This document shows, in pieces, positions 1 through 64,000 of a stretch of DNA of 64,000 bases. Positions within the stretch are counted from its first letter, which is position 1. Every line of letters starts with the position of its first letter. The notes beneath the pieces are model-generated. The model was not told the DNA's origin. It saw only the letters and a list, made by a program, of their open reading frames with translations, and made no database searches. The DNA is from Naegleria gruberi (Eukaryota): assembly GCA_000004985.1 (NCBI GenBank), contig GG738914.1; one strand, written 5' to 3'. Made by a program: the position numbers and the translations under genes.

Positions 1-1030
1 AGGAATAAACTTGATGATTACTGGAAGAAGCTCTCTTATTGACCTCGACCAGTGATTGACTTCGAGACGAAAGTGGAGGAAACGCTTGTTCCAATCTTCT
101 CAAACTCAACTGAAATACCTTAACTGTAAACTCTGAAAAATCGTTAAATAACTCTGGTCTATGTGTCTGTACAATGTGATTCTCATTCAAATTTTCAAAA
201 CTGCTCTCTGGTAAACTCAAAATTGAAGTAATCTCTGAATTTTTCTGTAAAACAGAAGAAATATCATTATCCGAATCGACTAAACTGCTGTGAAATAAAG
301 TATTCGATCTAGTTCCAATTGATGAACTTGTCGTTGATTGTACATCATTTTCTCCACTTGTTGCGTTATTGAAAGATCCCATCATGTAATCTTGATCAAG
401 TTTCAGTTGATCAAGTCGTTGTTCTATAATAATTGCCTCAGAAACAGGTACCCTAATAGAAGTTAAATCCTAATATTAATTTTTTTTTCAAAAATCATTA
501 CACGTTCATCATTTTTTACAATAAATATTAAATAGTATTAAATAACAAAATAGTAAAATAATATTAAATATCAATATTCATGATGAATACAAAAATTAAA
601 AACACCAAATAGATAGACTATAACCTACACTTCTAGAAAAACACATCAGTGACCTTCCGTCCCATTCTTCTTGTTTTAATTTTTCAATAGTTGCCGTGCT
701 CACTCCTTCCAGCGATTGTAACCACTTGACAAATAAATCCACATCCCAATCCTTGATGGCTATTATACTCGGATCGTATTCTGCTTCGAATTGCGAACGT
801 GCAGCTGAATTTTAATATAGTTTCGAATAGTTTCGTATAAGTTTAGTGTAATTTCGAATAGGAAGAAAAATGAAATACATTAAAATTCAATGTTTCATGT
901 TTCCAACAAGAAGATATTTTTGTAATTTGTAATATTATTCGAATGATGATGACAAACAGTAAATGCCAAGTGATGTTTAGTGTGGCTTACCTTTGCTCTT
1001 CACTTTGAAAATGCGTTTCAGGAATGACAT
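1..1030 (-). CDS. SAM-domain protein, N-terminal part. Three exons: 1030..991, 804..629, 469..1; the 3' end runs off the window.
   Basis: ATG at 1030..1028 in an AAAAAAATG context. Exon 1 reads MSFLKRIFKVKSK, followed by a GTAAGC donor at 990. The intron 1 acceptor is AG at 806-805. Exon 2 encodes AARSQFEAEYDPSIIAIKDWDVDLFVKWLQSLEGVSTATIEKLKQEEWDGRSLMCFSRS, a SAM-like W..DV..WL.SL motif, and ends at a GTAGGT donor. Intron 2 (628..470) is very AT-rich. Exon 3 opens with DLTSIRVPVSEAIIIEQRL and stays stop-free to position 1. Phases are consistent (40 nt, then 176 nt ending phase 0). It is absent from the ORF track because it is spliced and open at the window edge. Confidence 0.5.
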
Positions 1031-1404
1031 TTTTTTCTGCAGCACTTGACAGCAATTGTTTTTTATTATTCGGAGTATCCAACCAATTAAATTTTTTTAT
1101 TCGAAACCGCTGTGATTATCCTAATGACCACAAGCGTACTGAAGGAAGTTAAACCCAAATAAAATTTTTGACATGCTAAAAAGCCCGTGTGAGTGCTTTA
1201 AGGGAACATTGAACACAATTTTGAGAAAATTTAAAGAGTTTGTTTTTTTTACAATGCAAATTGAAAAAGTGTTGATGAAAGTATTTACAGTTTTTTTTAA
1301 TTAATTAATTAGTGTTTGCTTTTTCTGAAAAGATGACAGCAAAAATATTGAGCTAAGTGGAAGAGCATTGATTCGTATAGTGTTTGATAGGACGTTCCAC
1401 AAGA

Positions 1405-1896
1405 TTAGACGAATAACCATCGTTTGACTTTTCTCTTGTAATTTACAAATTCCTGTCCAAACAATTCCTGTAAAAATCGTTCTTCTGGTTCTATCTGAAA
1501 CTTGTTTAAATACCACACAAAGAATGGAAGAAACACAACCATCACCATCCAATCCATCAAGAACAATGACCATCCAAACAGACATGCCAAAAATCCCACA
1601 TACATTGGATTTCTCGTCCAACGATAGACTCCACCCTGAACTAAACTCGAAGTTTTCTCAGGAGTCATTGGATTGACCGTAGTTTTCATTTTGGAAAATT
1701 CATATTTTCCCGCCAATGCAATTCCCGCGCCAATCATTAATGATGAAGCAAATAATAACAATCTCATCACGAATGAATTATCATCGGACGAACAGAGAGA
1801 GAATGCATTCCGAGTCATGATATTGAATAAATACATAGCTAGCATGCAGAGGAAAGTAAATAGTACGGGTGGAACTTTAAGTTCTAATGAAGACAT
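1405..1896 (-). CDS. Isoprenylcysteine carboxyl methyltransferase / phospholipid methyltransferase family membrane protein (163 aa).
   Basis: Complete ORF with ATG at 1896..1894 in an A-rich context. C-terminal motifs GGVYRWTRNPMYVGFL...EPEERFLQELFGQEFVNYKRKV match the ICMT/PEMT family signature (RHPxY...EE..L...FG..Y..Y). Hydrophobic segments are consistent with a multi-pass membrane protein. Confidence 0.7.
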   Translation of the reverse strand: MSSLELKVPPVLFTFLCMLAMYLFNIMTRNAFSLCSSDDNSFVMRLLLFASSLMIGAGIALAGKYEFSKMKTTVNPMTPEKTSSLVQGGVYRWTRNPMYVGFLACLFGWSLFLMDWMVMVVFLPFFVWYLNKFQIEPEERFLQELFGQEFVNYKRKVKRWLFV

Positions 1897-2910
1897 TTTT
1901 TTTTGATTTGTTTTTTAGCAAGTTTTGGAATTAAGATTTGGAGCTTAAATGGTGAAAAAATTGGCGCGTAGTTTTTAATTGGTGAAAATTTGGGTAAGGA
2001 TAATATTTTCTCAGAGGAAGATATTAATAGTTTATGTGAGGATGGTGAATAATTAGTTTACAATGAGAAGGTGAGGATTGACTGAATGGAGTTGGCTCAA
2101 GCCTAAAAAAGATGTGGATTAGAATAGTAGAAAGATATGGAGCTATTCGAAAGTGAATATTTGATAGAGTGGAAATATAAGGAAGGAGGCAAACATGTGA
2201 GAGAAGAGATTTCAACTCTTGAAAAATAGATATCTGATATTAAATTCGTGGTGTGTTATCCTAAACTGATACGATTTCGGTTTAACTTTCTAATCTCTGG
2301 AAAGTTAACTCAATTTTTGGGCATTTTCAAACCAACATCATTGTCTAAATATATTAAAATGAAAATTGTCACTATTCATCCATTAATAAGCAAAGAATAA
2401 TTCGATTTGGTTATCCTAAAGTTTATTAGAAAGCCATTGTCTTTATTAAGGAATTTTCACAATCAATGTTTATGTGAAAAAACATCAATATTGGTCAAAT
2501 TTTTCAGTATCACCCTCTATTAAATCCAAAAACTCAATCATCAAACCATTATTCGAATCGCACTCGTTATTCGAAACCAAAGAGATAGATCTGTATTTGT
2601 AAAACTGACACTTGTTGACATACAACTGACTCTCAAACCGCTCATTTTACACTTTCGACCATAACACAATCCTCACTTTCGTATAAAAACTCCCACTCAA
2701 TTTTACATTTGAAAAAAAACATTCAACATACAAAAAGTGTAAAAATTTGGCGCCAATTATTCTCAAGCCAATTACAACTCGAAAAAAAAACCTCAAACAA
2801 CAAACTTGCGCCAAACCTTTGCAAATTTTTCTCTTCTCCAAACAAACAACAACAACAAGAACAATTTTGATTCATTGATCAACTAGAACAACCAGAACAA
2901 TATCCGAAAA

Positions 2911-3201
2911 ATGTCCAATCAATTACAAGAATTTGTTAGAATTAGAAGTGAATTCAATGATTTACGTGCTACACAACTTGCCCGAGGACAATCCATGCCA
3001 GTGAGCAATAATAATTCCGTTGCTTCTGCTGCTTCAGCTCAAATTATTCAACAAAATAATCAAAAGGCTAATTTGGCTAGAATTAACAATGATTTGAGAG
3101 CTTTGAGAGGAAGTGCTTTGGTTAGGAATGATAATGCCTCTTTGATTGTGGATACAATGGCTTCTCAATTGATGAATCAAGTCAGTGCCATGAATCAATA
3201 A
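2911..3201 (+). CDS. Small hypothetical protein (96 aa), Q/N/A-rich, possibly coiled-coil.
   Basis: ORF with an ATG in an A-rich context (gaaaaATGtcc). No recognisable domain, so the call rests on ORF length alone. Confidence 0.35.
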   Translation: MSNQLQEFVRIRSEFNDLRATQLARGQSMPVSNNNSVASAASAQIIQQNNQKANLARINNDLRALRGSALVRNDNASLIVDTMASQLMNQVSAMNQ

Positions 3202-7050: not shown

Positions 7051-7342
7051 TTTTATCAGGAGGAGAAATGATCATTTGCTTCTGTGTGCTTTTTTTGCAT
7101 TACATTCTTCATCTTGAGAATAGTAATACTCTTTCATCTATAGCATTTCCTCTGTTGAAGAATATTCAGTCAGTAACGTATATCGGAGTGAATGAGCAAT
7201 ATTCAGGCTTCTTTTCAGTTTCTTGCCAGTTCCTCCTTATGATGGTTGTTTTATTCCTCGGTTCTACAGGTCATCCTTTGCGTACTGTTGACTGTGGTAT
7301 TTATCAACAAAGTTGTCAAATTCACCTTTCATCCTTTGAATT

Positions 7343-9049
7343 TTGTTTTATGGATTGCAATTAAAAATGTCTTTACTTGCTAGCAGGGCACAACTGAATT
7401 ATCCTAGATGTGTTTTTGTTTCATCAAATAATGAAGTTTATATTGCTGATGAAGGTAATCAAAGAATTAGAAAAGTAGTAGAGAATGGAAATATTGTAAC
7501 AATTGCAGGAAATGGAACTGCTGGATTCAGTGGTGATAATGGCCCTGCAACAAGTGCACAACTGTATAATCCTTTTGGTATTTTTGTTTCATCAAATAAT
7601 GAAGTTTATATTTCTGATTCTGGAAATAATAGAATTAGAAAAGTATTAGAAAATGGAAATATTATAACAATTGCTGGAAATGGAACTGTTGGATTCAGTG
7701 GTGATAATGGCCCTGCAACAAGTGCACAACTGTATAATCCTTTTGGTATTTTTGTTTCAGCAAATAATGAGGTTTATATTTCTGATTCTAACAATAATAT
7801 AATTAGAAAAATATTAGAAAATGGAAATATTGTAACAATTGCTGGAAATGGCACCAGGGGATTCAGTGGTGATTCACCATTTGATATTAGAATGTATCCT
7901 CATGTTGGAAATAGTAGCCTGTATTCCAAAATAGAATTTCATAATTTGAAAAAACATTCAAGAGATCAATTATTTGGATTGCAAATTTATGGATTCATTC
8001 CACTTATTGAAAAAACTTCACCAAAATTTTGTAATATTTTGAAGAATGAAAAGATACTTTGTTTGATGAGTTCATCGCAACAAGAAATTATTCAAAAATT
8101 AATTGACTCTTTGATGTATGATAAGAATAAGGTAAATTTTAGCAAAGAAGAAATCTTGGATGTTTTATTCATTTTGGGTTTATTTAAGAATGGTGAATTT
8201 ATTGATTTGAAAAGATCATTGACAAGTGAATTTGAGAACTCACTCACATTAGAAGGTCTTACTTTCAAATGGGAAACAATTGAAAATTTACTCAAAGTTT
8301 GCAAGGAAGAATTTAATGTTCAAAATTACATTCTTGATCATTTGAATAACTATTGTATTGAATATGCTGTTGTTCAAATGAGGACCAAAGAAGGAAACAC
8401 TTTATTACGGACTCTTCCAATAATTATGAGAAATGGTGTTGCCCTATTTTCAACAATGATTTTTACTCAACCAACTGCAATTAATGTTGAGGAAACAATT
8501 GAAAATGAACCACAAACAATTGAATCATTATATAATGACATGAACACAAGTGATGTGAAAATCAAAATGGGACAAAACAAATACTTATATTGCCACAAAA
8601 CTGTATTGAGTTCATCAAGTACATTCTTTAATGCATTATTTGAAAGTGGATCTTGTTTCAGTGATTTGAGTGATGATGGAGAATTCACACCTGACTAATC
8701 AGAAGATTTGGAATTATTGGAAATTGTGATCAAACATTGTTATGGAATTTCATTTGACAAAATTGATCCTGTTAAAATTATTGGATTACTTGATATGGCA
8801 ATGAAACATGAAATTCAATATCTGGTCGATTATTGCAAGAATAACTTTAATCTATCCATTGATAATTACTTTACTATGCTTGAAGCATGTGAAAATTATT
8901 TTGATTTACAACCATTTGAGCACTTTTTGAGAGAGATTGTCAAATTTAGCATCTCCAACAGAAAACAACTTTTCAGCGATCACAATGGAATTTCCAAATT
9001 ACCTGAAAAAGTTTGGCAAGAAATCTTAAAGCTTTCACAGGACTTTTGA
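7343..9049 (+). CDS. NHL-repeat + BTB/POZ (and BACK-like) domain protein, interrupted by an in-frame TAA at 8696..8698.
   Basis: Three near-identical 56-aa NHL units (SSNNEVYI.D.GN.RIRKV.ENGNI.TIAGNGT.GFSGDNGPATSAQLYNPFGIFV). A BTB motif follows (KYLYCHKTVLSSSSTFFNALFESG...D*SEDLELLEIVIKHCYGISFDKIDPVKIIGLLDMAMKHEIQYLVDYC). ORFs 7343..8698 and 8708..9049 are in the same frame, separated only by one TAA lying inside the BTB fold, with no room for an intron. The N-terminal repeat looks truncated, so upstream exons are possible. Confidence 0.6.
7427..7873 (+). repeat. Intragenic tandem repeat, period 168 nt (2.7 copies, about 90% nucleotide identity), encoding the NHL units.
   Basis: Copies start at 7427, 7595 and 7763, each opening aataatgaagtttatat...ggattcagtggtgataatggccctgcaacaagtgcacaactgtataatccttttggtatttttgtttca. 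The third copy diverges after ggattcagtggtgat. Confidence 0.8.
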
Positions 9050-12312: not shown

Positions 12313-13350
12313 TTAATGGAGATGCTTTTTACTTTGGTAGGAGTTTGACATGTTTCCAACAACCACATATGAAGCAAAGGCATCTCCCTGTGAAGGTGGA
12401 CACAATGACATGTTAGAATTCATTCTCATCAATCCCTCCTCCTCTTCCATATGACATCTTTGATGAGAAGGAGTTCTATTCGGAGAGTGTGTCTTCCTTA
12501 CTGTTTCACAAGGTGATGCTAATGAATCAATAGTAACATTGTTGTTATTGCATTCGAATTGTTCATGATGACATAGACAGTGTATCTTATTGGATTTAAA
12601 TCTTAGGATCGGAGAGAAATTGTTGTTCTTATTGTAATTGTTGGAGAGAGATGAAGGAAATTGAGCAGATTCTGGGAGTGTATTCTCATGGGGATTTAAT
12701 AAGGGTTCACATCTCTCTGATTGAATTCTTCTCAATTGAGCATGATGATCAAAGGATTTATGAGGGAAGGAAGAGGTGTTGTTTTCAAAAGCTTGTTTCT
12801 TTGAGGTTTCATGGGAAGGGAGAATGACTGGGTAGGATTGATTAGTTTCGTGAGTTTTCTTGTATTGGGAAGGACGAGAATTGGATTGATGAGAATGATT
12901 CAGGTTGGATTGTTGTCGATATTTGAGAAAGTTAGCTGAAATGCTAATCACATCATTTGTGCAAACACTTGAACTGACACAACTTTCATCTAGAGAACTG
13001 GTCAATGAGGAATTGACTGAATTGCAACTCTGAATTTCTTCTTCTTCCATTAAGGTGGAGCAATTACTCGAATTACAATAAACATCTTCACTGCGAGAGC
13101 TGGAGGAGAGATGAGTTGGAATGGAATTAAAGCTATCAATCATATGTTGTGGGTTTCTATTGTTGGGAGAGCTAGCTGATTTGGTAACATTTTGCTGGTG
13201 ATGATGAGATTGAGATGTTGTCGGGGATTGATACTTCTTATGATGGTGATGACTCGGTGTTGAATGCTTTCTTGTTTGGTTTGGTGATTTTTCTACGGCA
13301 ATCATTGAGGTAGAGATGGGAAGAATGGATAATGATTGTTTGGCTCCCAT
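12313..13350 (-). CDS. S/N/H-rich low-complexity protein with an N-terminal myristoylation motif MGAKQS (345 aa).
   Basis: ORF with ATG at 13350. MGAKQSL fits the MG[^EDRKHPFYW]xx[STAGCN][^P] N-myristoylation consensus. His/Gln/Ser runs (HHHHKKYQSPTTSQSHHHQQ) and Cys-containing C-terminal motifs are present. Confidence 0.6.
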   Translation of the reverse strand: MGAKQSLSILPISTSMIAVEKSPNQTRKHSTPSHHHHKKYQSPTTSQSHHHQQNVTKSASSPNNRNPQHMIDSFNSIPTHLSSSSRSEDVYCNSSNCSTLMEEEEIQSCNSVNSSLTSSLDESCVSSSVCTNDVISISANFLKYRQQSNLNHSHQSNSRPSQYKKTHETNQSYPVILPSHETSKKQAFENNTSSFPHKSFDHHAQLRRIQSERCEPLLNPHENTLPESAQFPSSLSNNYNKNNNFSPILRFKSNKIHCLCHHEQFECNNNNVTIDSLASPCETVRKTHSPNRTPSHQRCHMEEEEGLMRMNSNMSLCPPSQGDAFASYVVVGNMSNSYQSKKHLH

Positions 13351-13972: not shown

Positions 13973-15058
13973 TTACATTGTAACTGATAAATATCGCTTG
14001 GGAGTGGATTGTGATCTCGATGCTGTATTTGGCTGATTAGTGGTACAAGGGGGTGTCTCTGGTCTTGTTACTGCAAGAAGAGGAATTGGGCCTGTTGCAT
14101 TAGGATTAAAAAGTGAGGTAATAGAAGCATTGGTTTGGAAACTAGATGTGGAGGTGTTAACACTGACCGATCTTCTTGATCTGTGTGTTGGACTCGTATT
14201 TGATGAGTCAACAATGTTTGAACTTCTCTTGTACATTTGTGCAACTGGAGGAGAGTGGACAACTTGTTGGGAAATTTGAGGAGTGAATGGAGAATCAGAA
14301 ATGAGGGTAGTTCTCTTCTTTGGAGTGGTATGAATACTGCTGCTGAAGTTGGAAGGGGATGAAGGTTGATAGATTGGTGTGACTTGATTTCTCTTTACAC
14401 TAGTGGATCTATTCAAGAGACTAATCATTGGAGGATGTGGTTGAAAGGCAGGTATCATCACTCCACCCAAAGAAGGAGAAAAGGAAACTACTGAAGAACT
14501 TGTTGAAAGTGATGAAAGAGAAGTTTCTGAAGAGATTGAACCTCTATGTCCAAGAATATCATGCTCATCAAATTGATTATTACTCGGAGTATGATAGAGT
14601 TGATTGGGATGAGCAACGGGTGAGAAGAGTTGAGGTGAATTGGAACGTACTGGCGATAGTTGAGGATGTGTTCTCTTACTAAGTCTTGGTGATTGTGACC
14701 TTTTAGGGCTTGAATTGTCATCATGATGAATATCGTAATAATCATTGTGTGAAATTTGTATTGGTGATGATGAATATTGTTGGTGATAATGAGAAGAAGG
14801 TGAATGATGATGTTGTTCTTCCTCAGTGACTCCATAGAGTAAACTTGGACTCGATCTAGTGGCTGTCTGTGGATGTACTACCTTACTTCTCAAATGCTGA
14901 TGACTATTTGCCTTTCTATTAGGATAGGCTTGCTTTTGTGTCTTTTCATAGTTATGCTCTGACTTTTTCAATAGTGATTCAATCTTCTTATTTTCCTTAG
15001 TATTGTCCTTCTTGTAGTAACTGGGCGAACGTATTGTTGTTGATGAATTGGATCCCAT
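13973..15058 (-). CDS. S/T/P/H-rich low-complexity protein with an N-terminal MGSNSS myristoylation motif (361 aa).
   Basis: ORF with ATG at 15058..15056. Composition and architecture resemble the neighbouring genes at 12313 and 15490. Confidence 0.6.
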   Translation of the reverse strand: MGSNSSTTIRSPSYYKKDNTKENKKIESLLKKSEHNYEKTQKQAYPNRKANSHQHLRSKVVHPQTATRSSPSLLYGVTEEEQHHHSPSSHYHQQYSSSPIQISHNDYYDIHHDDNSSPKRSQSPRLSKRTHPQLSPVRSNSPQLFSPVAHPNQLYHTPSNNQFDEHDILGHRGSISSETSLSSLSTSSSVVSFSPSLGGVMIPAFQPHPPMISLLNRSTSVKRNQVTPIYQPSSPSNFSSSIHTTPKKRTTLISDSPFTPQISQQVVHSPPVAQMYKRSSNIVDSSNTSPTHRSRRSVSVNTSTSSFQTNASITSLFNPNATGPIPLLAVTRPETPPCTTNQPNTASRSQSTPKRYLSVTM

Positions 15059-15489: not shown

Positions 15490-17367
15490 TTATTTATTTG
15501 CCGTCATTCTATAAGAGGAGAGATTTGAGTAGTTGCATGAAGCTGACACAGTACTCTTCCTCTTGTTGGGACTTGCGTTATTGAGGTTTCGTTTTTTCTT
15601 AGCAATGCGTGCCTTCTTCTCTGTATTTACACTCAGATGAGTTGTGGTGCCATTCTTATGGTCGAGAGTAAGGTGGTCAAGGGATTGAGCTGGGTTAGGT
15701 GGACAAGAAACTGCAATGAGAGGAACTACTGTAATGTTCTTACTCTCAAAAACACTGTGTCTTCTACGAGTGTCAAAAATTGCTGCAGCACTTTGATCTT
15801 TAGAATAAATACTGAATGGGGAGGATTTGTAGGAATGAGATGGATGTGATGGATTGTGTAATGAATCTGAATGTTGCTCGACTGTGACTTGTTCACGTCT
15901 TCCCATCAATTCATTGAACCAATTCTTTTGGAAATCGAGAGCAGCTGAACAGAATGATTTTCTCTCGTCTGAAGAAGAGAATAGAGACTGAGCCATGGAG
16001 GTTGTGGTGGTAGAGCTAGAGATGGAAGATCTGGAGAGTGCGTTGTCTGAGGTTGAGCTGTTTGTTGATTCTAGTTTTGTTGTAGCGGAACCTTTTTGCT
16101 TCCTTTTTACCGATTTTTCCTTAGAAGACTTTACAGGTGAGAATAACGGAGTATCAGTGTTATCAATACTGCTTTCTTCTTTTTTGGATATCTTATCCAG
16201 CTTCAGATTCGTTATATTTCCCTTTTTTGTTTCATTCTTCTTGTCAGATGTTTCAGGATTTTGTTGCATAACCTCGCTCTGCGTTGTGATGGTCTTTTCT
16301 TCCATCTTTGGCATAGCTTGAATATTAGTACATATTTCACCTTGTTCTGGTATTAAGGAAGATTGAGGTTTGGATAGCTTGAGCTTTCTCCTTGATGATG
16401 CGTGTGCATTGTTTTGAACTGCCAGAAAGACAATCTGTTTGGTTGCAGGACTTGGTGCAAAACTGTTAGATCGTTGTCTTTGTGGATGATCTGCATCTTG
16501 TGCTTGAAAATCTGCAGAGGATGGAAGAGGAATATCTGGAAGTGTTACTGAATGGTGCATCACTTCCTTCTTCTCCTTTTCTGGTTCTTCAATTAACGAG
16601 AAATCTTCCACACTCTCAACATGCATAACCCTTGTTGCTTCGAGAAGATTTTTAGAAGATCTATTCGGTATCTTGATTGATGAAACTGATTCCTCATTGC
16701 CCATAAACCACTTATTAGGGGATGGAGGAGAGGAGCTCTTCTGTTGAGATGTTTGCTGTTCTGATTCAGTAGTGTTACTGGTACTGTTTCTTATCAGCTT
16801 ACTGGTAGAGTTGTTTTGAGAAGAGATTGGAGAAGTGGTAGATTTTCTAGGTGAGATTGCAATACTTTCAATGGAGGATTGATGTGAAATACTTGTTGGT
16901 GTGGAATTCCCACTTCTATTGTCAGGTTGTTGTTGTTGTTGAATGGATACAGAAGAATTAGAGGATGATTGATGAATAATAGGATGGGTAGCAGTTGTGT
17001 TGGTTGAAGCATTGGTGGATTTTACATTTGTAGAATTAAGGGAAGATTTTGGATAATGCGCACTCGATGATGATGAGGCATAGCTCATTGAGGAAACTGA
17101 TTTCAATATTGCTCCTTGAGTGGCCGTTGTTGTATCTGTTTTGCTAGAAGCAGTGTGTTTCATCTTTGACAGTGTTATTGATGTTATTGTGTTGGTACTA
17201 TTAGATGATTTATGAGTAGGAGAAGTTTTCGAGGCCACTCTAATGGTTGTGGGAGACTCATCCATATTTAAATTGGCAGAGTACATACTTGGTGCTGATG
17301 AAGCCTTTGGAATATGATCAGCACTGCTGTGATGATATCTTCGATTACTACTGTGTCTATTGCCCAT
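15490..17367 (-). CDS. S/T/N-rich low-complexity protein starting MGNRHSS (626 aa).
   Basis: The track ORF runs to 17601, but the upstream 78 codons lack an ATG-supported start and look like readthrough UTR. ATG at 17367..17365 (aaataatATGG) gives MGNRHSSNRRYHHSS..., again matching the myristoylation consensus. The ORF length is divisible by 3 from this ATG. Confidence 0.55.
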   Translation of the reverse strand: MGNRHSSNRRYHHSSADHIPKASSAPSMYSANLNMDESPTTIRVASKTSPTHKSSNSTNTITSITLSKMKHTASSKTDTTTATQGAILKSVSSMSYASSSSSAHYPKSSLNSTNVKSTNASTNTTATHPIIHQSSSNSSVSIQQQQQPDNRSGNSTPTSISHQSSIESIAISPRKSTTSPISSQNNSTSKLIRNSTSNTTESEQQTSQQKSSSPPSPNKWFMGNEESVSSIKIPNRSSKNLLEATRVMHVESVEDFSLIEEPEKEKKEVMHHSVTLPDIPLPSSADFQAQDADHPQRQRSNSFAPSPATKQIVFLAVQNNAHASSRRKLKLSKPQSSLIPEQGEICTNIQAMPKMEEKTITTQSEVMQQNPETSDKKNETKKGNITNLKLDKISKKEESSIDNTDTPLFSPVKSSKEKSVKRKQKGSATTKLESTNSSTSDNALSRSSISSSTTTTSMAQSLFSSSDERKSFCSAALDFQKNWFNELMGRREQVTVEQHSDSLHNPSHPSHSYKSSPFSIYSKDQSAAAIFDTRRRHSVFESKNITVVPLIAVSCPPNPAQSLDHLTLDHKNGTTTHLSVNTEKKARIAKKKRNLNNASPNKRKSTVSASCNYSNLSSYRMTANK

Positions 17368-18276
17368 ATTATTTAAAGTTGATATGCTGTTGATTAATAG
17401 TAAGGAAATAATTTTAATAACCCCATCAACCTTCTTATGATGAGAGGCAATGTGTACCAATTGCAGTTGTTGATTTTTCAAGTTTAACACTTGAAGAAGA
17501 TGAGAAATTGGTGATGTATTTTGTTTTTCAAAGAGAACACAAATGAATCTAAAACTGTCGTGAGTTAATGGAAGGTTGTTGCTTACTCCCAAGATTCTCA
17601 ATCTGTTGATGATTCCTTGTTGGTTATTTGATAATGGCTTGTGCGAAAATTATTTGGTCGGTTGTGTTGGAGCAAATCTGCAAGAAACCTCAAAAAGTGT
17701 TCTGATGATGGTTGTGTGACTGTTTTTTTTTGGCGATGGGCGTAGAGGTAAGGTTCCTTCTCCACTTACTTGGAACAAACAAAGACAATAAAAACCTTTA
17801 AGGAAATTGTTGAGCAAAGTACGACACTGTGTAAGATGTCAATAGTTGTGTGTTGGAATGGAAACAAAGCAGACTTTTAAACACTCAGCCTATTCTTGCG
17901 CCTTATTATGTTATTACATAACATTCCTTGTGGTGTTACTGAATTATACAAATGCAATCAAGCAAAGTATTGAGGAGAACAGAACTTGCAGTGTTACTCT
18001 TCAGCTCTCGTAGTACTCGGGCTAGTTTTCTTTAAAGCTAATGAGAGAACACAATAGGATTTAAACGAATGAATTTGGTCCTTATCAAGATCAATATACC
18101 CTAGTACATGTTTAATAAGAACTCTGTAAGGCAAAAGAAGTCGGGTTGTTCCTGCACGCTGTATTCGTCAACCATTTTTGGCATTATAAAGTCCTTGTTT
18201 GTCTTCTCTATTTAATTGTCTACTGTAGTAGTTCGCTTCATGTATTGAGTTGACTGAACTTGAAGTACATATTTAC

Positions 18277-20270: not shown

Positions 20271-21575
20271 ATGGGGAACAGACATTTGAAAGCAAAATCA
20301 ATTTCTAACAAGATCGCTCCGAGTGAGCAGATACAGATAGCAAATATTCATGATAAATCATATTCTTCATCACTTTCTGAATCACTAGAATTTACTCATC
20401 TATTATCTATGGGAAGTAATGATAAAGGTCAACTTGGACGAAACTTGTTTAAAGAAGATGATACTGAAACTTATCCGATAGGACCAGTTCTTGAACTCTA
20501 CCATAAAGAAACACCAAAATCCATCGAAGATGAATACGAGAGATTAGAAATGGATTCAAGAATTCTCAGAGATATCAAACATGTAGCCGCCGGCAGATCT
20601 CATCTCTTGCTGGTGACCAATTCCAATAAGATTTATGCGATGGGCTTCAATAACTATTCACAATTGGGATTCAAGGAGGAAGAACAATACATTCCCAGAT
20701 TGAGACCTGTTGAGCTACCAGAAAAAGTTTCATCAGTGGATGGAGTTGCTGCTGGTTGGTTTCACTCAATTATTCTATGTGATGGTGGAAAGATTTTCAG
20801 TAGTGGACATTCGTTCTTTGGTCAGACTTTTGATGTCAAGATGGGTTCATCATTTCAGAGGTCGAATAAGATGAAATTTCTGGAGAGGGATAATTGTAAA
20901 GTGAATAGTGTGCATACAGCAACATTTTCATCGAGTTTGCTTGTGGATGGTTGGAAGATTTATGCATGTGGAGAAATGGATGCCAATTCGAATTCGTCTA
21001 ATTATTTGGTGCCTGGATGTGACATTTTCAAACAAAAGGAATCAATTAAGAGTGTGAAACATGCTGATAAGGGAATTGTTGTGCTAACGCATAAGGGAAA
21101 TGTCTATATGGCCAATAAGGATAGAGGTTTCCATGAAATAGTTCAGAATGTTTACAGTTTCGTACCATCTCACATGTATGAAACAACTTATTTCTTGAAG
21201 AATAATTCAAATATCTTGACAGAGTGTAATTTGGGACCATTCTCTGTTCGATCCAATATTGACATTGGACGATTTGTACAGAAATATGGACTCGAAAATA
21301 TTCAAATATGTGCAGGATATTGTTTCTACTATTTGGTTGTAAATAAGAAAAGAGTTTACTCAATTAATGGAACAGAACTCAAAGAAATACTAAACCTCGA
21401 AGGAGTTTCCACCAGTGTCCTCATTAAGGAAGTCGTTTCGACCTCAGACTGTACTTATGTTGTATTCGAAAGATGTATTTCCACAGCCAGTGAAAAGCTA
21501 ATGAAAACAAGACTCTTGAAAAATCAAAAGCATGCAGATCTCCTCATTACCACCCAAACCACTCAACTGGATTGA
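20271..21575 (+). CDS. RCC1-like (regulator of chromosome condensation) beta-propeller repeat protein (434 aa).
   Basis: Repeats of the type LLSMGSNDKGQLGRN, KIYAMGFNNYSQLGF, KIFSSGHSFFGQ, KIYACGEMDANSNSS, NVYMANKDRGF. ATG in an aaaaaaatATG context. Confidence 0.6.
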   Translation: MGNRHLKAKSISNKIAPSEQIQIANIHDKSYSSSLSESLEFTHLLSMGSNDKGQLGRNLFKEDDTETYPIGPVLELYHKETPKSIEDEYERLEMDSRILRDIKHVAAGRSHLLLVTNSNKIYAMGFNNYSQLGFKEEEQYIPRLRPVELPEKVSSVDGVAAGWFHSIILCDGGKIFSSGHSFFGQTFDVKMGSSFQRSNKMKFLERDNCKVNSVHTATFSSSLLVDGWKIYACGEMDANSNSSNYLVPGCDIFKQKESIKSVKHADKGIVVLTHKGNVYMANKDRGFHEIVQNVYSFVPSHMYETTYFLKNNSNILTECNLGPFSVRSNIDIGRFVQKYGLENIQICAGYCFYYLVVNKKRVYSINGTELKEILNLEGVSTSVLIKEVVSTSDCTYVVFERCISTASEKLMKTRLLKNQKHADLLITTQTTQLD

Positions 21576-25689: not shown

Positions 25690-26202
25690 ATGTCTCAACA
25701 AGAATCATTAGATGCTCCACCAATTATTGAACAAATGGTGATGCAATCACAAATGTTTGAAGATCCGATCACTGGTGAGATGAATGTGAGTCATACCTAT
25801 GTAAAACCAAACTGTGGAGGAGGAAAATATCATGGTGAATTAATTGATGTTCGTATCAAGGCAAAGAAGGCTCATGATTTGTATCAAGTCATTGTTAAGC
25901 CTCATGATCAAAAAGTCATGAAGGGAATTGGAAGTGTCAGAGTTCTTCATAATGATCAGGAACTTGTTGCTGATAGCTCTAACTTTGGATCGGAAAGTTC
26001 AATTGATCTCGATTTTAAAGCAAGTAATGGAATGAAGGTTGTTGTTGAAATCGATTGGAAGTACAAGTAAGTTTATTGAGGAGTATATTTTATATTCATT
26101 TTTCTTATTATTAGTATTAAAGCTGTTTGGCCACCAATCATTCAAGAAGAATTAACTGTAGATAGTCATAAAGAAGTCCACATTGTTGTGAAAGTCAAAT
26201 AA
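25690..26202 (+). CDS. Small hypothetical protein with two exons: 25690..26066 and 26115..26202.
   Basis: Exon 1 ends ...EIDWKY then AA|GTAAGT. A 48-nt AT-rich intron ends ttattattAG. Exon 2 (T ATT AAA GCT GTT TGG CCA ...) continues the frame to TAA at 26200-26202 (…NIKAVWPPIIQEELTVDSHKEVHIVVKVK). Without splicing the ORF stops at 26070. The intron is unusually short. Confidence 0.4.
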
Positions 26203-47324: not shown

Positions 47325-48128
47325 ATGAAAGCTGTTCGTTGTGTGAATGTTTGTTGCTTGCTCTTGTTAGCAATTGTCTCTGCTATGATGTTATTAGAAA
47401 CTAGTGTTGGAAAGGATGTCAAGTTTTGCATGCCTCCACAAGCTACCTTCTGGGAGACTACCAAGGATGCTAGCTATATCATGAAGGAATTCAAAAATAA
47501 TGATCAGGTTATCAAGAACCAATACAATGTCAAGACTTCACAACAACGTCAAGATTTTATCGTAAAAGGAAATGTTGTAAAAAGTGAAATTTCCATTCAA
47601 AATCCAATGAATAATGATACCATCGTGTATACTCTGACCAGTGACAATGGTGATTGTTCTTGCATGAATTTTGGTCCATCTGATTCCAGTGTTTTTGTAC
47701 AATGTCACACTTTACCAATTTTGGAAAAGGGTAGTATAGCTGGAATTAATGCATTGAAAATTGGTTACAATCAAAGTGATTTGTATCCAACATGGACTGA
47801 AATTAATTATTATTGGGTTGTTCCTGCTAAGGAAAGTGGATATTGGTGGTTTTTGAGTAGAACTAGTTATGTCATTGATGATTCGAATAATGTTCAATTG
47901 GGAACTACTACTTATTATAATCAAGAAGATAAGGCTGATCCTTATGCATTCTATCTTCCAAAGTATTGTCCTCATTACTCACAATGTACCAATCCAAGAA
48001 AAAATAAACTGTTTTTGAATGACTTCCATATTTGGCAGTTTACTTGTCAATCACAAGATGAATTAAATTTTGCATTTGATTTAGAAATTTCTGTCCTTCA
48101 TCAGTTATACCATTTGAATAAACATTAA
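47325..48128 (+). CDS. Secreted Cys-containing hypothetical protein. The 3' end is uncertain because it overlaps the minus-strand LRR gene.
   Basis: ATG at 47325 (ggaaaATGAAA) followed by a signal-peptide-like MKAVRCVNVCCLLLLAIVSAMMLLETSVG. The last ~30 codons (48040..48128) overlap the 3' coding end of the LRR gene on the other strand, so the true terminus may lie earlier or be spliced. Confidence 0.45.
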   Translation: MKAVRCVNVCCLLLLAIVSAMMLLETSVGKDVKFCMPPQATFWETTKDASYIMKEFKNNDQVIKNQYNVKTSQQRQDFIVKGNVVKSEISIQNPMNNDTIVYTLTSDNGDCSCMNFGPSDSSVFVQCHTLPILEKGSIAGINALKIGYNQSDLYPTWTEINYYWVVPAKESGYWWFLSRTSYVIDDSNNVQLGTTTYYNQEDKADPYAFYLPKYCPHYSQCTNPRKNKLFLNDFHIWQFTCQSQDELNFAFDLEISVLHQLYHLNKH

Positions 48129-49264
48129 GATCAGTCAAACTATTCAATTGACTAATGAAATTTGCTCCCTGATCACGAATGCAGTTATTACCAATGTTAA
48201 GCGTAGTCAATCTATCCAATCCACTAATGTGTTCAGCTCCTTTTTGTCCAATATTATTTCCACAAATAGTAAGGTTGGTCAACTGTTTCATTTCACTAAT
48301 ATATTGAGCGCCTTCATCGCCTAATTTGTTATATCCAATACCAAGAGTAGTCAATTGCTTGAGTACACATAAATGTTTTGCACCTTCTTCACTAATATTA
48401 GATGTGTAAATATAAAGATTTGTGAGTTTGGACATTTCGCTAATATATTTAGCTCCTTCATCACCAACTTTTGTGTTATTAATAGAGATAGGTTAATTGT
48501 TTCAAAGAGTGAATGTGTTTAGCACCTTCAACTCCAATATCATTGTTACTAATGTTGAGACTAGTCAATTGATTCATTCTACCAATGTATTGAGCTCCTA
48601 TATGACCAATATTATTCGAAAGGATGAGCAGTGTGGTTAACTGGTTGAGTTGACTAATAGATTTTGCTCCTTCATCTCCAATTTCATTTTCTGATATTTC
48701 GAGATATCTTAGTTGTTGCATATTACCGATATACTTGGCTCCCCCCATATCGATAGGATACAAATACCCACACATATCAAGATGAGTCAATTGATTCATT
48801 TTGCTAATGTATTTAGCACCTTCATTACCAAAATCATTGGCAGTAATATCAAGAATTCTTAATTTCTTCAGTTGACTAATGTGTTTTATATCTTCACTAC
48901 CAAGATTGTTATAATGAATATCAAGAACAGTCAACTGCTTCATCAATTCCAATATTTTACAATCAAATTTAAAAGATAAATCTCTATTTTCCACTTTTAA
49001 AGTTACAATATTTTGTAAAAATTGACCTTTCACCATTCTATCATTCCTACATATTACCGAAAGTTTACATCTTTCTCTAACAATTTTCAACCACTGTTTT
49101 GAAACTAGTGCACAACTCATTGCAATAAATTTAAAATCATCGGAATGAAAAGATAAAATCTCTCCGAGTATATCATCATCAATAACATGATGAGAATTAT
49201 TCATTGTATTGAGTGTCGATACCTCTGCAGCAGCAGAAGGGTTGCTTGTTTGTTGTTGGCCCAT
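48040..49264 (-). CDS. F-box-like + leucine-rich-repeat (ribonuclease-inhibitor-type) protein with an apparent frameshift near 48479..48495.
   Basis: N-terminal MGQQQTS..., then an F-box-like DDILGEILSFHSDDFKFIAMSCALVSKQWLKIV, then ~24-aa LRRs (QLTxLxISxNxIGDEGAKxIS). ORF 48479..49264 ends ...AKHIHSLKQLTYLY*. The next repeat continues in the +1 frame (ISINNTKVGDEGAKYISEMSKLTNLYI...), which is ORF 48040..48435. There is no space for an intron. Confidence 0.6.
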
Positions 49265-58515: not shown

Positions 58516-61500
58516 ATGCAAGGAAGAACGCTACTGCTTTTCACGCTCATCCTTTTATGTGTGCTAGCTTATTGTTGTGTAGAGAATGTTACTGCTGAAT
58601 CATGGGGAAGTTTCTTGAGTCAATCTATGCAAGTTACAAATGGTAAGTGGAGTGTAATTTGACATTTTGGAAGAATTAAGCATTATGATCATTATTCATA
58701 TTTAGGAAAATTATTTTCATCATCAAAAAGATCACAAGTTGTTTGTCCTCCAAATACCTTTGGAAGTAAATGTAATAATAAGGTGAATCTCCCAGATACA
58801 TATCCTCTCAAAAAAGGTCCGTTAATGATTGGCCAGATGGAGATTAATGATGGAAATTCTTATTCATGCGAGTGGACTATTTTTGTTTTAGAATTTAATC
58901 AAAGTTTTAGTTATCCCTGTTTTTTTGTCGTAGCCGATACAACTGTTCCACCAATCAATTACACTCTAACCTATTCAGTGTGGTCTGCAGGTTTCATAAT
59001 TTTTTCAAAGGATGTTGTGTTTATTGATGGGATAATTCCAACATTGAATACTAAGGTGACCTACATGGGTGATTTCAATTTCTTGATTGACAAACCAATG
59101 AGCTGGGATGATTCTGCCAACACATGCCAAGTTGGAATAGTTCAACAAAAGATTTCTTCATTGCAAGAACTTTCAAAGTTGAAAAACTTAACTACATTTG
59201 ACATTCCTTGCAATTCATCTTCAACAATCAAGGTTCCATATTTTGGATATCCTTACTAAGATAGTGTTTTCCTATCATAATTTAAAATATTCAATGTATG
59301 ATAATTATATTCAAGAAAGAACCTTAATTGAATACTTTCCAACATTTTTTGCAAATCTTGGAAACACGACAGACATTAGCATTTCAAACTCTGATAGAAT
59401 TATCTCTTTCTATAGCATTGTGAGTTCTAACATTCCTGTTTTGAAATGCAAAGTCCAATTGAGTCTAGGAAATTCTCTCACTACCCTATTCGAATCTAAT
59501 TGTTCTTCCTTTTTGAACTTTACCCATTCACTCACTCAATACAGCACCAATACGAATGCCTCCATCATAGTCACTCTCTCAAATCAAGAATACATGTTTG
59601 AAGAAAGTGAAACTTTTGACATGAATCTATCAAATTGTTCTCAGTGTCAAAATGGAATTTGTCGATTGTCTCAAAGTAGTATTGATGGTTCAACTCATTG
59701 CGAATGCTCAGGCTTGTTTGAAGGAGAATTTTGTCAAGAGTGTAAAGATGGTTTTGTCAAATTATCGGACAAGTGCGTTTGTCCGAATGGTTATCAACAA
59801 ATTGGTTTTGGCTGTGTCTTTGTTAGTAGCTCAAACGCCACTTCCTGTTTTGGATATAGTGTCAAAGAAGGTGATCGTGCATGTTCTTATCATGGAATTT
59901 GTAATTTGAATACTCATTTGTGTGAATGTAGTGAAAACTTTGATGGTGACAGATGTTCAACATGTAAGACAGGTTACACTGGTTCAAAGTGTGATATTCC
60001 AATTTGTCATGATGTGAGTGCCATCGATTCAACTGTTTGTAATTCCAAAGGTGATTGTGTAGCACCTGACAGCTGTCAATGTAATGCAAATTATTATGGA
60101 CCTAATTGTGCAAGCTTTAAATGTAATGGCATTGAAAAGAATAATGCTTTAGTTTGTTCATCACATGGTACATGTTCCAATGCTGATGTATGCACTTGTT
60201 CCTCAAATTATGATTCGTCCACTTTCTGTTCAAAATGTCTTCCTTCCTACAATGGAACTGATTGTTCCATAAAAATTTGCAGCCCAGAAACCACTTGTAG
60301 AGGCCATGGACAATGTAACGATCAATTACAATGTATCTGTAATGGAAAATTCACAGGCACCTATTGTGAAAAGTGTTTAGATGGTTGGGTTGGCAGTAAT
60401 TGCGACATTACTTGTTCTGCACAGACAACTTGTTCTGGAAAGGGAAGTTGTTCATCAACTGGATCTTGTATCTGCTCGGCAACTTCCTATGGAGATCATT
60501 GTGAGAATTGTAAAGATGGTTGGTATGGAGCTAATTGCGACTTTAGAATAGATTTTACATCTTTTGAATTTAATGAGAATGGTGATTCGATTAGTGCTTC
60601 TGTAAACTCTGTCATGAAGAAGAATATCAACTGTTCATCGCTCATTGTAAACACTGAAGTGTTAGGACAAGGTGCAACTTGTGTATTGGATGGTGATAAG
60701 AGTTTATTGATCATTAATCTTGGCACCTTGGCAACTATTGTCATTAATGGAAATCTCATTATCAGAAACTACATTGACAGCAAATTAACAACCAATGCCA
60801 AAGTGTCAGGAACTTTCTATCAAAGAGTTGATCCTGTCGCCTCCTTGACATCTGAAAAGTCTGTCATTGGTTGTGGAACAATGTTCTTGGATGCTTCTTC
60901 ATCCACTTCATTGGACAGAAGAAGATTGTTATTCACATTCTCTGCAGTCACAGCTCCAAATAATCAAGCCTTATCAAACCTTAATAATCTCATTTCTGGA
61001 AATAGTGCAAGTACTGTCAAATTCTCAGTGAATAATTTTACAGGTGGATCTTATTCTGTTCAGGTTGCTGTTCAGAGCACATTCTCTGGTAGAGTTTCGT
61101 ATGCTACGTTTGCATTCATGGTGACTGATGCCTCCCCACCAAATTTGAGTATTAAGAATGGTGTTTCGAGTACTGTGACTATTGGAAACTCATTTGTGGT
61201 TACACCAATTGTTTCATTCCCTTCATGTTATTCTGGTTCTGCTTTAATATCTAATCTGAAATTTACCTATACTCAAGTTAGCGGTGCTGCACTCCAGATT
61301 AAACAAAAGAATGAATTGTTGGTGTTTAGTTCAGATTATACCAAGTTGACTGAAGAAGGTAAATATGTATTTAGTTTGAGTGCTGTTGAACAGGGATATC
61401 CAGGAGCATCCATCACATTCGAAATCATCGCAGTAGCCCTTCCATTGAAAGTTTCGTTCAATATTCGTGACATGTCTCAATCCATGGAAGATAAAATCTC

Positions 61501-63454
61501 GTTTACAGTACTCAAACAGGATCCAAGTAATCCAGATGATGCAAGTGGACAAGTAGCTCTATCTTGTGTCAATATGGAAACTTTACAAAGTTGTGATGGT
61601 TTCGTCCAGAATGGTGCAAATATTGATCAGACCACTTTGTTATTTAACCAAAAGTATGGACCTGGCGTTTATTTGTTTACTGCTGTGTACACCAAGGGTT
61701 CGAGATTCTCCTCTTCCAAAGTTAAAATCACTGTCACAAGTCAATCGAAATCATCCTTCTTGAGAATATACATTAATACTCCTTCCAATATTGATCTGAC
61801 CTCAGTTGACCCATCCACTTATTTAATTCTTCAAGCACAAAGCATCGACTCACTAAGCGTTCAAAGAATCTACTCATGGACAACTGATTTTGATTCCTCC
61901 TCCACCTCCTCATTGGATCTCAACAAGAAATACTTGTCCATTCCAAAGAGTTTACTTGTTCCTGGTGCTTCTTACACAGTTTCTGTTAAGGTTGTGGATG
62001 GAGCAAAGGTAGGTGAGGGAGTTATTTCATTTGTGGTCAATTCGCCTCCAACATTGGGAAGTTTGGAAATTAATCCATCGACAGGTGTTGCCCTCACTGA
62101 TGAATTTAAGGTTTCATGTGGAAATGGGTGGTCGGATGTTCAACTCCCGCTGACCTTCAAGTTTTTGTACAGACTTCAAGGAGATGTGTTCTGGAAAGTA
62201 TTGAAAGAAAGATCTGAAACGAGGTCTTTCAGTACTGTCATGCCAAGTGGACATATAGAAATCAAATCCATTGTCTATGATGCTTTAGGAGCCGCCACAG
62301 AAACAACACAAATCATTCAAGTCACTAATCCAGTTGACATTACATCAGCCGTTCAATCTTTGAATGCTATTAGTACTTCTTCAGTCACTTCCTCTTCGAC
62401 CTCATCTGCATTGAGTGTTATTCAATCATTGAAACCTCAAACTCAAGAAGAAAAGCAAAAATTGAGTGAAACTGGATCAAAGATTGCAATTGCCTATTTT
62501 TCACAGATAGAAAAGGAAGAAACCGTCACTTCCCAAACAGTTTCATCAACAGCCTCTTCAATTTCTGTTATTTCATCCATCAGTACTTGTATTTCAAATC
62601 TGCCTGAAAGCACAGTCAGTTTTATCATTACTAAATTCAAGTCAACTGTCGATGGCGCCAATTCAAAGCTTAATTTACCAGATGAAGATATTGAATCATC
62701 ATTCAACAGTGCCACCACCATTCAATCCTATGTTGTCAAAAATGGAGAAAAGAGGGCAATCTATGTCTTCTCCAAAGTTGATATTACAATGTTAGATCAA
62801 ATTAAGGAAACTCTTGTTAACCTACAAGTGAAGAATTTAGTTGCAGACATGCCTGCTGCTAGAACATTCGGCACAGATTACTATTCATATATGAGATTAA
62901 TGAGCGTTTCGTCTTTGAGTAATTTGAATGATACAATCAGTTCAGAATCTTCATTCTCTCTCAGTCAACCATTCAGCACACTATCACAATTTTCTAATTT
63001 GGATACTGTTAAACTTGTGATGAAAGTCCAACAACAAAACGAAAGTGTTACCAAACTTTTCTCATTCAAGGTAGTTTCTACCAATACTGAAATACCAATC
63101 AGTTCTGATTCAATTGCTGAACTCACCATTGAAAATAATGATGGAGTTGTACAAAATGCTGCCACTTACGAATGCAAGATTTTACAAAATGGACAATTGA
63201 CATCATTGTCCTCATGTGTGATTGTTTCACACTCTGCAACCAGCTTTACAGTTAGGGTTCCTTCAACTGGTTCTTATGCAATTGTGGCCAATGTTAAGAA
63301 AGATGTTATTGTTGACATATTGTCAGAAGATAATTTGAAATATCTTGCTTTCCTATCATTGATTGTTCCAATTGTTGTGTTGATTGTCATTGTTTTCATT
63401 GTTGTGGTTTGTGTTATTAGAAAGAGAAAGAGAGCAAAAGTTCAAGGTGTTTAA
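58516..63454 (+). CDS. Large type-I membrane protein (~1600 aa) with a signal peptide and multiple EGF-like repeats. Exons 58516..58642 and 58706..~59250, then an apparent +1 frameshift in 59192..59259 leading into ORF 59198..63454.
   Basis: Exon 1 has ATG at 58516 (aaaaaaATG), signal peptide MQGRTLLLFTLILLCVLAYCC..., and a donor AAT G|GTAAGT at 58642/58643. A 63-nt intron ends tcatatttAG at 58705. Exon 2 continues in the frame of ORF 58783..59259. The 1418-aa ORF (8+ EGF-like CxC modules, a C-terminal TM LAFLSLIVPIVVLIVIVFIVVVCVI and an RKRKRAKVQGV tail) is in the +1 frame and open only from 59192. The only GT..AG option would give a 28-nt intron, so a frameshift is inferred. Confidence 0.6.
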
Positions 63455-63597
63455 GATTTTTAATAAACAATTAAAATAATTCAAGTTGCATTTCGTATTT
63501 TATTATTAAAGGGCAAGTTACGATTTAGTCACTTTTTATCAACAATTACTTGTGAATATTGGAATTATGTGTTAATGTACTCAAACATTTGTGTAAG

Positions 63598-63678
63598 GCG
63601 GTCTTGACCGAGTGGTTAAGGTGATTGACTAGAAATCAATTGGGGAGACCCGCACAGGTTCGAGTCCTGTAGATCGCG
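63598..63678 (+). tRNA. tRNA-Ser(AGA), second copy.
   Basis: Identical to 57988..58068 except for one substitution in the variable arm (GGGGAGACCC against GGGGCGACCC). The 7 nt upstream (gtgtaag) and ~27 nt downstream (atcagttttatcttttaaaaa) are also shared. Confidence 0.85.
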
Positions 63679-63712
63679 ATCAGTTTTATCTTTTAAAAAT
63701 TAACAAATCTGT

Positions 63713-64000
63713 TTATTCACCCAATAATCTTCCTGCCTCCAATTTTAAGGCCTTTCCAATTGTGTTGGCCTCCATTGTTTCTTTCACATTCTCCAAATAT
63801 TTTAACATGACTTCCAAGATTCCATCATGAAATATTTTAATGGCATCTTCATTGAAAATCACTTGATTCTTCTCTGGTGTGTTGTCTTGTTCTTCTTCTA
63901 ATTGATTGGAAAGAAATTCTTTAAACGTATAAAAGGATATGATATTTCTTGCCAACTTCATTTTCTTTTTCAATTCGTTTCGTTTTCGTTTCTTCTTCAT
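63713..64000 (-). CDS. C-terminal fragment of a hypothetical gene that continues beyond the window end.
   Basis: Open minus-strand frame from the window edge to a stop at 63713 (…ILEVMLKYLENVKETMEANTIGKALKLEAGRLLGE*). No domain assignment. Confidence 0.3.
   Translation of the reverse strand: MKKKRKRNELKKKMKLARNIISFYTFKEFLSNQLEEEQDNTPEKNQVIFNEDAIKIFHDGILEVMLKYLENVKETMEANTIGKALKLEAGRLLGE

Follow-up and report, generated by a model that had tools for sequence, protein, structure and literature searches.

Single frame-breaking lesions in five genes of a Naegleria gruberi scaffold: very recent null alleles and/or draft sequencing errors

Five genes within a 64,000-nt stretch of Naegleria gruberi DNA (hereafter, the window) are each disrupted by one stop codon or frameshift: one lesion is a nonsense substitution and the other four are indels of 1-2 nt. 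The lesions are very young: ordinary null mutations of very recent origin and/or sequencing errors in the draft, with no new biological mechanism involved. We lean slightly towards real null alleles over Sanger consensus errors, assigning a probability of roughly 0.5 to the reading that genuine null alleles or very young pseudogenes make up most of the lesions and that some are possibly consensus errors. A preliminary description of this DNA had claimed five genes with a single disruption apiece, and all five are present at or near the positions that it gave.

The window is nuclear DNA within a 233-kb scaffold (233,110 nt) of the 2010 Sanger whole-genome-shotgun draft of N. gruberi NEG-M, and the proteins that it encodes match public N. 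gruberi NEG-M proteins at 100%. These matches and the presence of canonical introns rule out a bacterial or giant-virus source. A stop-to-stop scan of the whole window revealed no further convincing split genes, and the long genes of the window contain no additional in-frame TAA. Dispensable families are not over-represented among the affected genes relative to coding length (by our own tally). The genes and their lesions are as follows.

7367..9049, plus strand: NHL-repeat/BTB gene (Pfam NHL, TEN_NHL and BTB).
8696-8698, plus strand: lesion 1, a TAA nonsense codon that is in frame and lies midway through the BTB domain, flanked by open frames 7340..8698 and 8699..9049.
26255..27177, minus strand: gene 2, a lineage-specific gene of ~307 aa that aligns with its paralogue XP_002670107 in one stretch over the break.
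Between 26907 and 26906, minus strand: lesion 2, one base missing at TCCA^CAACG, placed by comparison with a second-strain contig.
37532..42062, plus strand: NRPS-like gene with adenylation, weak carrier and thioester reductase domains (A-T-R), assigned by Pfam and orthologues.
41234..41240, plus strand: lesion 3, one extra base, in the simplest case the C at 41237, which follows codon GCA (Ala) and precedes GTC (Val).
48040..49264, minus strand: leucine-rich-repeat (LRR) gene of the LRR_6 type with an F-box-like N-terminus (Pfam LRR, repeat period).
48481..48490, minus strand: lesion 4, where the frame breaks at 48484, inside TATCTCTATT, with a lone T between CTC (Leu) and ATT (Ile).
58516..63454, plus strand: gene for an EGF/REJ-domain type I membrane protein (Pfam, signal peptide, intron, transmembrane helix).
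59192..59259, plus strand: lesion 5, where the frame shifts by +1 at some point within a 68-nt stretch over which both frames are open (codon usage).

Each gene has one lesion and its remaining frames are intact, the pattern of a young pseudogene or null allele, in which a lone disabling lesion is set against intact homologues; at the EGF/REJ site we infer this pattern. Continuity across the break is supported in four of the five genes by Pfam domains, orthologues, repeat period or a paralogue, and for the EGF/REJ gene the signal peptide and codon usage make it probable. The earlier statement that homology continues cleanly across every breakpoint holds for four genes; it is not borne out for the EGF/REJ gene, where the 271 residues on either side of and including the break have no aligning homologue. 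Gene-finding pipelines had been predicted to truncate or split all five genes, and public models bear this out at four sites (XP_002670527, XP_002670586/XP_002670585, XP_002670534 and XP_002670540).

In the NHL-BTB gene, the Pfam BTB profile (PF00651) matches in a single stretch, residues 398-501, that spans the stop at residue 452. This match is above the gathering score (36.9 bits versus a cut-off of 20.5) and covers profile positions 6-105 of 110, with the second half of the domain encoded by the open frame that continues at 8699..9049. The public model XP_002670527 corresponds to 7367..8698: it ends at the in-frame TAA and so contains only half of the BTB domain. No intron with GT..AG boundaries and a normal donor crosses the TAA; the sole in-frame pair is 33 nt in length with the donor GTGATG.

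The A-T-R gene reads ...NYTQLEA|VNVQSV... at lesion 3. Orthologues have QLKP-TNV and QLRS-VNV at this point, equal in length to the repaired QLEA-VNV, and in two other Naegleria species they are intact, collinear and in a single frame. Only once one base is removed does Pfam PF07993 (NAD_binding_4) match over positions 1-258 of 258 (E=1.1e-48), compared with positions 1-108 in the unrepaired sequence. Conservation with respect to the orthologues is as high in the downstream half of the reductase, after the shift, as in the upstream half. XP_002670534 (1202 aa) terminates at the shifted stop and so lacks more than half of the reductase domain.

In the LRR gene, 10 of 11 repeats span 24 residues, a length that the broken repeat reaches only with two bases restored. 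Lesion 4 is therefore best read as a 2-nt loss, which would be consistent with slippage in a CT or TA dinucleotide run. The F-box previously ascribed to this gene is not reported by Pfam at E<=0.01.

The EGF/REJ gene begins with an ATG at 58516 and a signal peptide, followed by a 63-nt intron (58643..58705), the frame change, a long exon and, at its end, a transmembrane helix. Codon usage switches frame at approximately 59235-59280. We infer continuity over lesion 5 from the signal peptide, the upstream 63-nt intron and codon usage; the unalignable N-terminus has no paralogues within the window. XP_002670540 begins at an internal Met, without the signal peptide and N-terminal region.

Gene 2 has a frame change of -1, and its annotation is divided between two models, XP_002670586 (113 aa) and XP_002670585 (145 aa). 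Its homologues in an exhaustive HMMER search are these two N. gruberi models and the paralogue; a word-indexed search returned no matches, a false negative given that the exhaustive search succeeded. Describing the gene as conserved was an overstatement, as its sole full-length relative is this one in-species paralogue, at 31-34% identity. A second strain, present in an independent Illumina/MEGAHIT metagenome assembly (ENA ERZ929261) at 96.6-97.8% identity to the window, has a T at lesion 2 (TCCATCAACG versus TCCACAACG in the window). Because the second strain has the missing base, lesion 2 is specific to the reference; the contig comparison also places the site outside the T/A runs near 26840-26860. 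Putting the T back gives the frame ...DDDNSINEIQIKTLG..., whose alignment to the paralogue needs fewer gaps than that of the unrepaired sequence.

The second-strain comparison that had been recommended, run here at gene 2, has a divided outcome: the missing base is present there, yet that strain carries its own, different frameshift ~30 nt upstream of lesion 2, read in contig k127_45824 (run ERR1078381) as an extra A at the equivalent of ~26935. Frame-breaking alleles of at least gene 2 therefore exist outside the reference assembly. Between the strains, gene 2 shows 11 synonymous versus 2 non-synonymous differences (dN/dS ~0.05, P=2e-6). Three neighbouring genes and an unannotated ORF (2911..3201) show no net frame change between strains, and non-coding DNA shows 17 gap openings in 2.1 kb. 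An intron over the variable zone of gene 2 was ruled out, as the downstream frame is kept with the paralogue to ~26905; 276 nt downstream of the zone identical between the strains also argue against it. Second-strain DNA was searched for at the four other lesion sites and not found (no cluster members): JGI metagenome scans with BTB-region and reductase-domain queries found nothing. The A-T-R and EGF clusters contained no Logan or ENA members, and exact-protein look-ups of the window ORFs and XP_002670534 returned no encoding contig. No mention of PRJEB11402 was found in the literature searched.

The least credible account of the breaks is that the organism bridges them by introns that are very short or non-canonical, by programmed ribosomal frameshifting, by readthrough of the stop codon or by RNA editing. 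Nothing direct favours it; what can be cited are the 33-nt in-frame GT..AG pair over the TAA and the few GT..AG pairs that could link the EGF frames. Introns confirmed in the window measure 63, 116 and 151 nt and have the donors GTAAGT, GTATGT and GTTAGT (consensus GT[A/T][A/T]GT), and the candidate donors at the breaks (GTGATG, GTTCCA and GTTGAA) are unlike these. When all GT..AG pairs linking the EGF frames were enumerated and the other sites inspected, none showed either the local donor consensus or a plausible intron length. Moreover, three of the breaks amount to 1-2 nt inside conserved domain or repeat sequence, the long genes lack another in-frame TAA, and gene 2 would require a shift of one sign in one strain and of the opposite sign in the other, in stretches that do not overlap. 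A conserved recoding site is likewise absent: the A-T-R orthologues are in a single frame and the gene 2 shift stretches do not overlap. The breaks do resemble programmed ribosomal frameshifting (antizyme +1, Euplotes +1, retroviral -1) in having two overlapping open frames for one protein, but differ from it in that there is no common slippery site, the sign and place of the gene 2 shift depend on the strain, and orthologues are single-frame.

It is also highly improbable that these are old pseudogenes, or genes of a relaxed-constraint lineage, that have long been non-functional. In favour of this reading, expanded families (NHL-BTB, LRR and EGF/REJ) account for three of the five genes, and gene 2 is lineage-specific. 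At 33% G+C, however, a neutral frame soon closes (~7% stop codons per codon), whereas 113 to 1,418 open codons lie downstream of each lesion. The gene 2 dN/dS of ~0.05 is far from the neutral value near 1, there is one lesion per gene, and the C-terminal half of the reductase is kept with respect to its orthologues. The lesions are accordingly young, given intact frames elsewhere in the genes and so low a dN/dS in gene 2. The pseudogene-rich region or relaxed constraint suggested in the preliminary description, if taken as long-standing, is contradicted by single lesions in clean frames.

The remaining choice is between real null alleles and sequencing error, a pair of candidates that had been correctly identified at the outset. 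The long-read form of error is excluded: the NEG-M assembly is listed as 'Sanger' (PMC9928731 Table 1), and none of the three exactly localised indels (TCCA^CAACG, GCA[C]GTC and CTC-T-ATT) is in a homopolymer, site 5 having no exact position. Uncorrected Nanopore or PacBio homopolymer errors would resemble the present lesions in producing frameshifts that split gene models, and differ from them on exactly these two points. The check for homopolymers proposed earlier places the localised lesions outside such runs. Nor is the assembly a finished genome, the standard against which the density had been called atypical: it is a draft in 1,977 scaffolds (PMC9928731).

Sanger consensus or base-calling errors may well account for all or most of the lesions, with the genes intact in the organism, although we rate this somewhat below an even chance. 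Such errors could arise at low-coverage or low-quality positions, or by the merging of haplotypes that differ by indels. Random consensus errors in functional genes would leave just such a pattern, one lesion per gene and frames perfect elsewhere; both halves of gene 2 are under strong purifying selection, the second strain has the T missing at lesion 2, and the A-T-R orthologues are intact and collinear. The lesions are also spread evenly along 51 kb and over gene types, and the draft is unfinished. Against this, the NEG-M assembly is 85.7% complete and 1.3% fragmented by BUSCO, the lowest fragmented share among 14 Naegleria assemblies (PMC9928731), a figure difficult to reconcile with a genome-wide indel error near 1e-4 per nt. 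Five lesions in ~45 kb of coding sequence would, at a uniform rate, affect ~14% of 1.35-kb genes (versus the 1.3% of BUSCO), so that uniform error at such a density is not supported. The density is ~5-10 times that suggested by BUSCO fragmentation, and if the genome-wide rate is <=2e-5 per nt, the probability of at least five lesions in the window is <=0.002. Assembly of one haplotype at half coverage could, on the other hand, raise local error well above the BUSCO-based estimate.

The nature of the lesions bears on the same question. The stop substitution and the probable 2-nt loss are both atypical of Sanger error, and base-call errors would rarely give a nonsense codon such as the TAA of lesion 1. 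The window has no Ns and no gaps that would point to a poor region, and a gene 2 frameshift is found in an independent strain as well. Sanger shotgun-draft consensus errors are comparable in their isolated, non-homopolymer 1-nt indels, truncated gene models and unfinished assembly, but not in the stop substitution, the probable 2-nt loss or the density.

Genuine null alleles would fit the biology of the genus: Naegleria is described as mainly heterozygous and diploid, with mitotic reproduction (PMC9928731). The haplotype assembled from such a heterozygous, mainly clonal diploid would have happened to carry the null alleles. An intact second allele would exist, and recessive loss-of-function alleles masked by the other copy could hence persist; one or more of the five lesions may nevertheless be draft consensus errors. 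The closest parallel is with segregating loss-of-function alleles or young unitary pseudogenes in clonal heterozygous diploids, which likewise show a single lesion in a gene otherwise intact under selection, intact orthologues or paralogues and, in one gene, a different lesion in a second strain; for segregating alleles, this comparison is made from one assembled sequence of NEG-M and a presumed second allele. Natural N. gruberi lineages could go further and contain unusually many segregating frame-breaking alleles (~1 per 10 kb of coding sequence), held as recessive nulls masked in a mainly clonal diploid, with the AT-rich linker of gene 2 (26906-26938) an indel hot spot struck independently in two strains and the rest of the gene under strong purifying selection. 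We regard this broader proposal as speculative and rather unlikely.

Whichever holds, no mechanism needs to be understood differently. The value of these observations is mainly practical: comparative studies with the N. gruberi proteome inherit the truncated and split models. If the lesions are errors, the reference needs polishing; if they are real, they offer a small sample of the load of null alleles that a clonal, heterozygous protist carries.

Five genes of the window each carry a single disruption of the reading frame. In the NHL-BTB gene, one and the same reading frame is open on either side of a TAA at 8696-8698. When this stop is masked, a single continuous match to the Pfam BTB domain (36.9 bits) covers residues 398-501 and runs through residue 452. 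RefSeq protein XP_002670527 spans exactly 7367..8698, and the model is therefore cut at the TAA. In the NRPS-like A-T-R gene (37532..42062, +), the match to the thioester reductase domain (NAD_binding_4) covers profile positions 1-108 as the sequence stands, and all of 1-258 (of 258) once one base is removed at about 41237. The orthologues of N. lovaniensis and N. fowleri (64% and 47% identical, respectively) have QLKP-TNVHSV and QLRS-VNVGSV at this place, and the repaired protein, with QLEA-VNVQSV, is collinear with them. A recoding signal was rejected for this gene, as the orthologues are in a single frame. XP_002670534 begins at an internal Met (MLLILETV...), the gene start being at 37532 (+), and ends in the shifted frame (...EARQCSKCY); this model is thus too short at its start as well as at its end.

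Ten of the 11 repeat units in the LRR gene are 24 residues long, and the broken unit reaches this length only with one codon completed. The period places two missing bases at 48484, within TATCTCTATT, and slippage by 2 nt is the probable nature of the lesion.

Spliceosomal introns of the ordinary kind occur in this genome, and three were confirmed within the window:

36107..36257, intron of 151 nt (GTTAGT..AG); removal restores the ABC1 motif PIAAAS/IAQVHRA
29862..29977, minus strand, intron of 116 nt (GTATGT..AG); removal restores ...CL-I-VCGPGNNGGDG
58643..58705, intron of 63 nt (GTAAGT..AG) in the 5' part of the EGF/REJ gene

The long EGF/REJ ORF extends 132 codons further upstream than the RefSeq model (XP_002670540, which starts MFEESETF...) and has no signal peptide. 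Ahead of it lies another ORF, in the -1 frame as seen from the long one; before this second ORF come an ATG (58516) with a signal peptide and then the 63-nt intron. Codon usage, when stop codons are neutralised in the scoring, changes from one frame to the other at about 59235-59280. Neither a homologue covering the region around the break nor a credible intron joining the two frames was found. As the simplest model we infer a single +1 shift, on grounds other than homology. The preliminary description, which had five single disruptions with homology continuing across each, is largely correct, this gene being the exception.

G+C content is 30-38% across the window and ORFs are tightly packed, many encoding the serine-rich or repeat proteins typical of protists. 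The repaired A-T-R protein is a 100% match to "predicted protein [Naegleria gruberi]" in a protein search, and nine more ORFs of the window encode proteins identical to N. gruberi RefSeq entries. Five tRNA genes lie on the plus strand (5385-5469, 6054-6144, 57825-57905, 57988-58068 and 63598-63678). Three are tRNA-Ser (anticodons TGA, AGA, AGA), two of them just upstream of the EGF/REJ gene; that at 6054 (91-93 nt), to which no anticodon is assigned, may be interrupted by an intron. Four tandem genes for serine/threonine-rich low-complexity proteins occupy 11354-17601 (-), a region of markedly higher G+C with strong positive GC skew on the plus strand. The products of 12313..13350 and 13973..15058 begin MG.., the plus-strand ORF 20271..21575 begins MGNRHL, and MGNRHS is internal in 15490..17601; the MG../MGNRHL starts resemble N-myristoylation starts. 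Proteins composed almost wholly of DUF4116 repeats are encoded at 9570-10883 (+) and 18277-19941 (-), with 9 and 14 Pfam matches, respectively.

The remaining lesion is in gene 2 (26255..27177, -), a lineage-specific gene of about 307 aa. A word-indexed protein search returned no homologue, but its negatives are unreliable for short proteins (it missed the gene's own RefSeq pieces). An exhaustive search gave three proteins:

XP_002670586, RefSeq piece of 113 aa; query 100% identical over 113 residues
XP_002670585, RefSeq piece of 145 aa; query 100% identical over 145 residues
XP_002670107, N. gruberi paralogue of 291 aa; aligned in one stretch over residues 17-307

Contig L001 (849 nt, from an ENA metagenome assembly), reached from a member of the gene 2 protein cluster, is 97.8% identical to 26427..27279. 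An extra T in L001 between 26907 and 26906 merges both frames (...DDDNSINEIQIKTLGRYAL...), and repair with this T leaves fewer gaps against the paralogue than repair placed from the overlapping frames. This places the lesion, the absence of one base, at 26906/7; overlapping frames alone would have put it about 50-70 nt further downstream. Gene 2 is likewise broken in the second strain: an extra A, adjoining an in-frame 6-nt deletion, lies about 30 nt upstream of the lesion seen in the window, so frame-breaking alleles of this gene exist beyond the reference assembly. Recoding was also rejected: the shift would have to lie downstream of about 26912 in the window and, with opposite sign, upstream of about 26926 in the second strain. 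The AT-rich linker (26906-26938 (-); L001 340-380) has a different single-base frameshift in each strain within about 35 nt, through either an indel hot spot or coincidence. Its flanks show synonymous change only, and the two strains do not differ over 276 nt downstream.

L001, L002 and L003 belong to a public "metagenome" assembly (ENA ERZ929261, run ERR1078381, PRJEB11402); no paper mentioning PRJEB11402 was found. They represent a second Naegleria strain, 96.6-97.8% identical to NEG-M, and cover 1260-3331 and 25320-27279 of the window. Its non-coding DNA is rich in indels, with 17 gap openings over 2.1 kb, and there is no net frame change in the PEMT-like gene, ORF 2911..3201, gene 25690..26070 or the NmrA-like 3' end; its differences behave like natural variation. 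A possible unannotated intron lies at 26067-26114 (+), where GTAAGT overlaps the stop codon of gene 25690..26070 (XP_002670532) and a 48-nt GT..AG interval would add 29 residues to the protein. In the second strain, a 1-nt indel and four substitutions fall here (three of the substitutions inside the interval, one just upstream), and beyond it there is one synonymous change only.

Each gene has one lesion, with 113 to 1,418 codons still open downstream; as roughly 7% of random codons in this genome are stops, the lesions are very young. The half of the A-T-R reductase downstream of the shift matches orthologues as well as the upstream half. When gene 2 of the window is compared with L001 and L002, leaving aside the 35-nt variable zone, 11 differences are synonymous and 2 are non-synonymous (dN/dS about 0.05; P=2e-6 against neutrality); both halves have therefore been under selection, each in its own frame. 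These observations exclude old pseudogenes and the relaxed constraint initially proposed.

The long-read origin suggested at the same time is also wrong: the NEG-M assembly (40.9 Mb, 1,977 scaffolds) is Sanger-based (PMC9928731 Table 1), and this platform and the non-homopolymer contexts of the lesions exclude long-read homopolymer error. The choice between error and pseudogene was nevertheless right in kind. That the lesions are mostly Sanger-draft errors is a serious, if somewhat less probable, explanation: random errors would give just this pattern, a single lesion in every one of several genes under selection, the T missing at 26906/7 is present in the other strain, and separate assembly of the two haplotypes could have left local coverage low. 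However, uniform error at the window's rate (5 lesions in about 45 kb of coding sequence) would strike about 14% of BUSCO-size genes, whereas only 1.3% of BUSCOs are fragmented (85.7% complete; the lowest fragmented share among 14 Naegleria assemblies; PMC9928731 Table 1). At 2e-5 per nt or less, five lesions here have P<=0.002. One lesion is a nonsense substitution, another probably the 2-nt slippage, and the gene 2 frameshift of the second strain lies outside the reference assembly. We give a probability of about one half to the lesions being real (null alleles or young pseudogenes), with some errors perhaps among them.

The phenomenon itself is ordinary. ERZ929261 could act as a second strain across the whole scaffold, and the main use of these results is in fixing four or five public gene models and in pointing to a simple read-mapping test.
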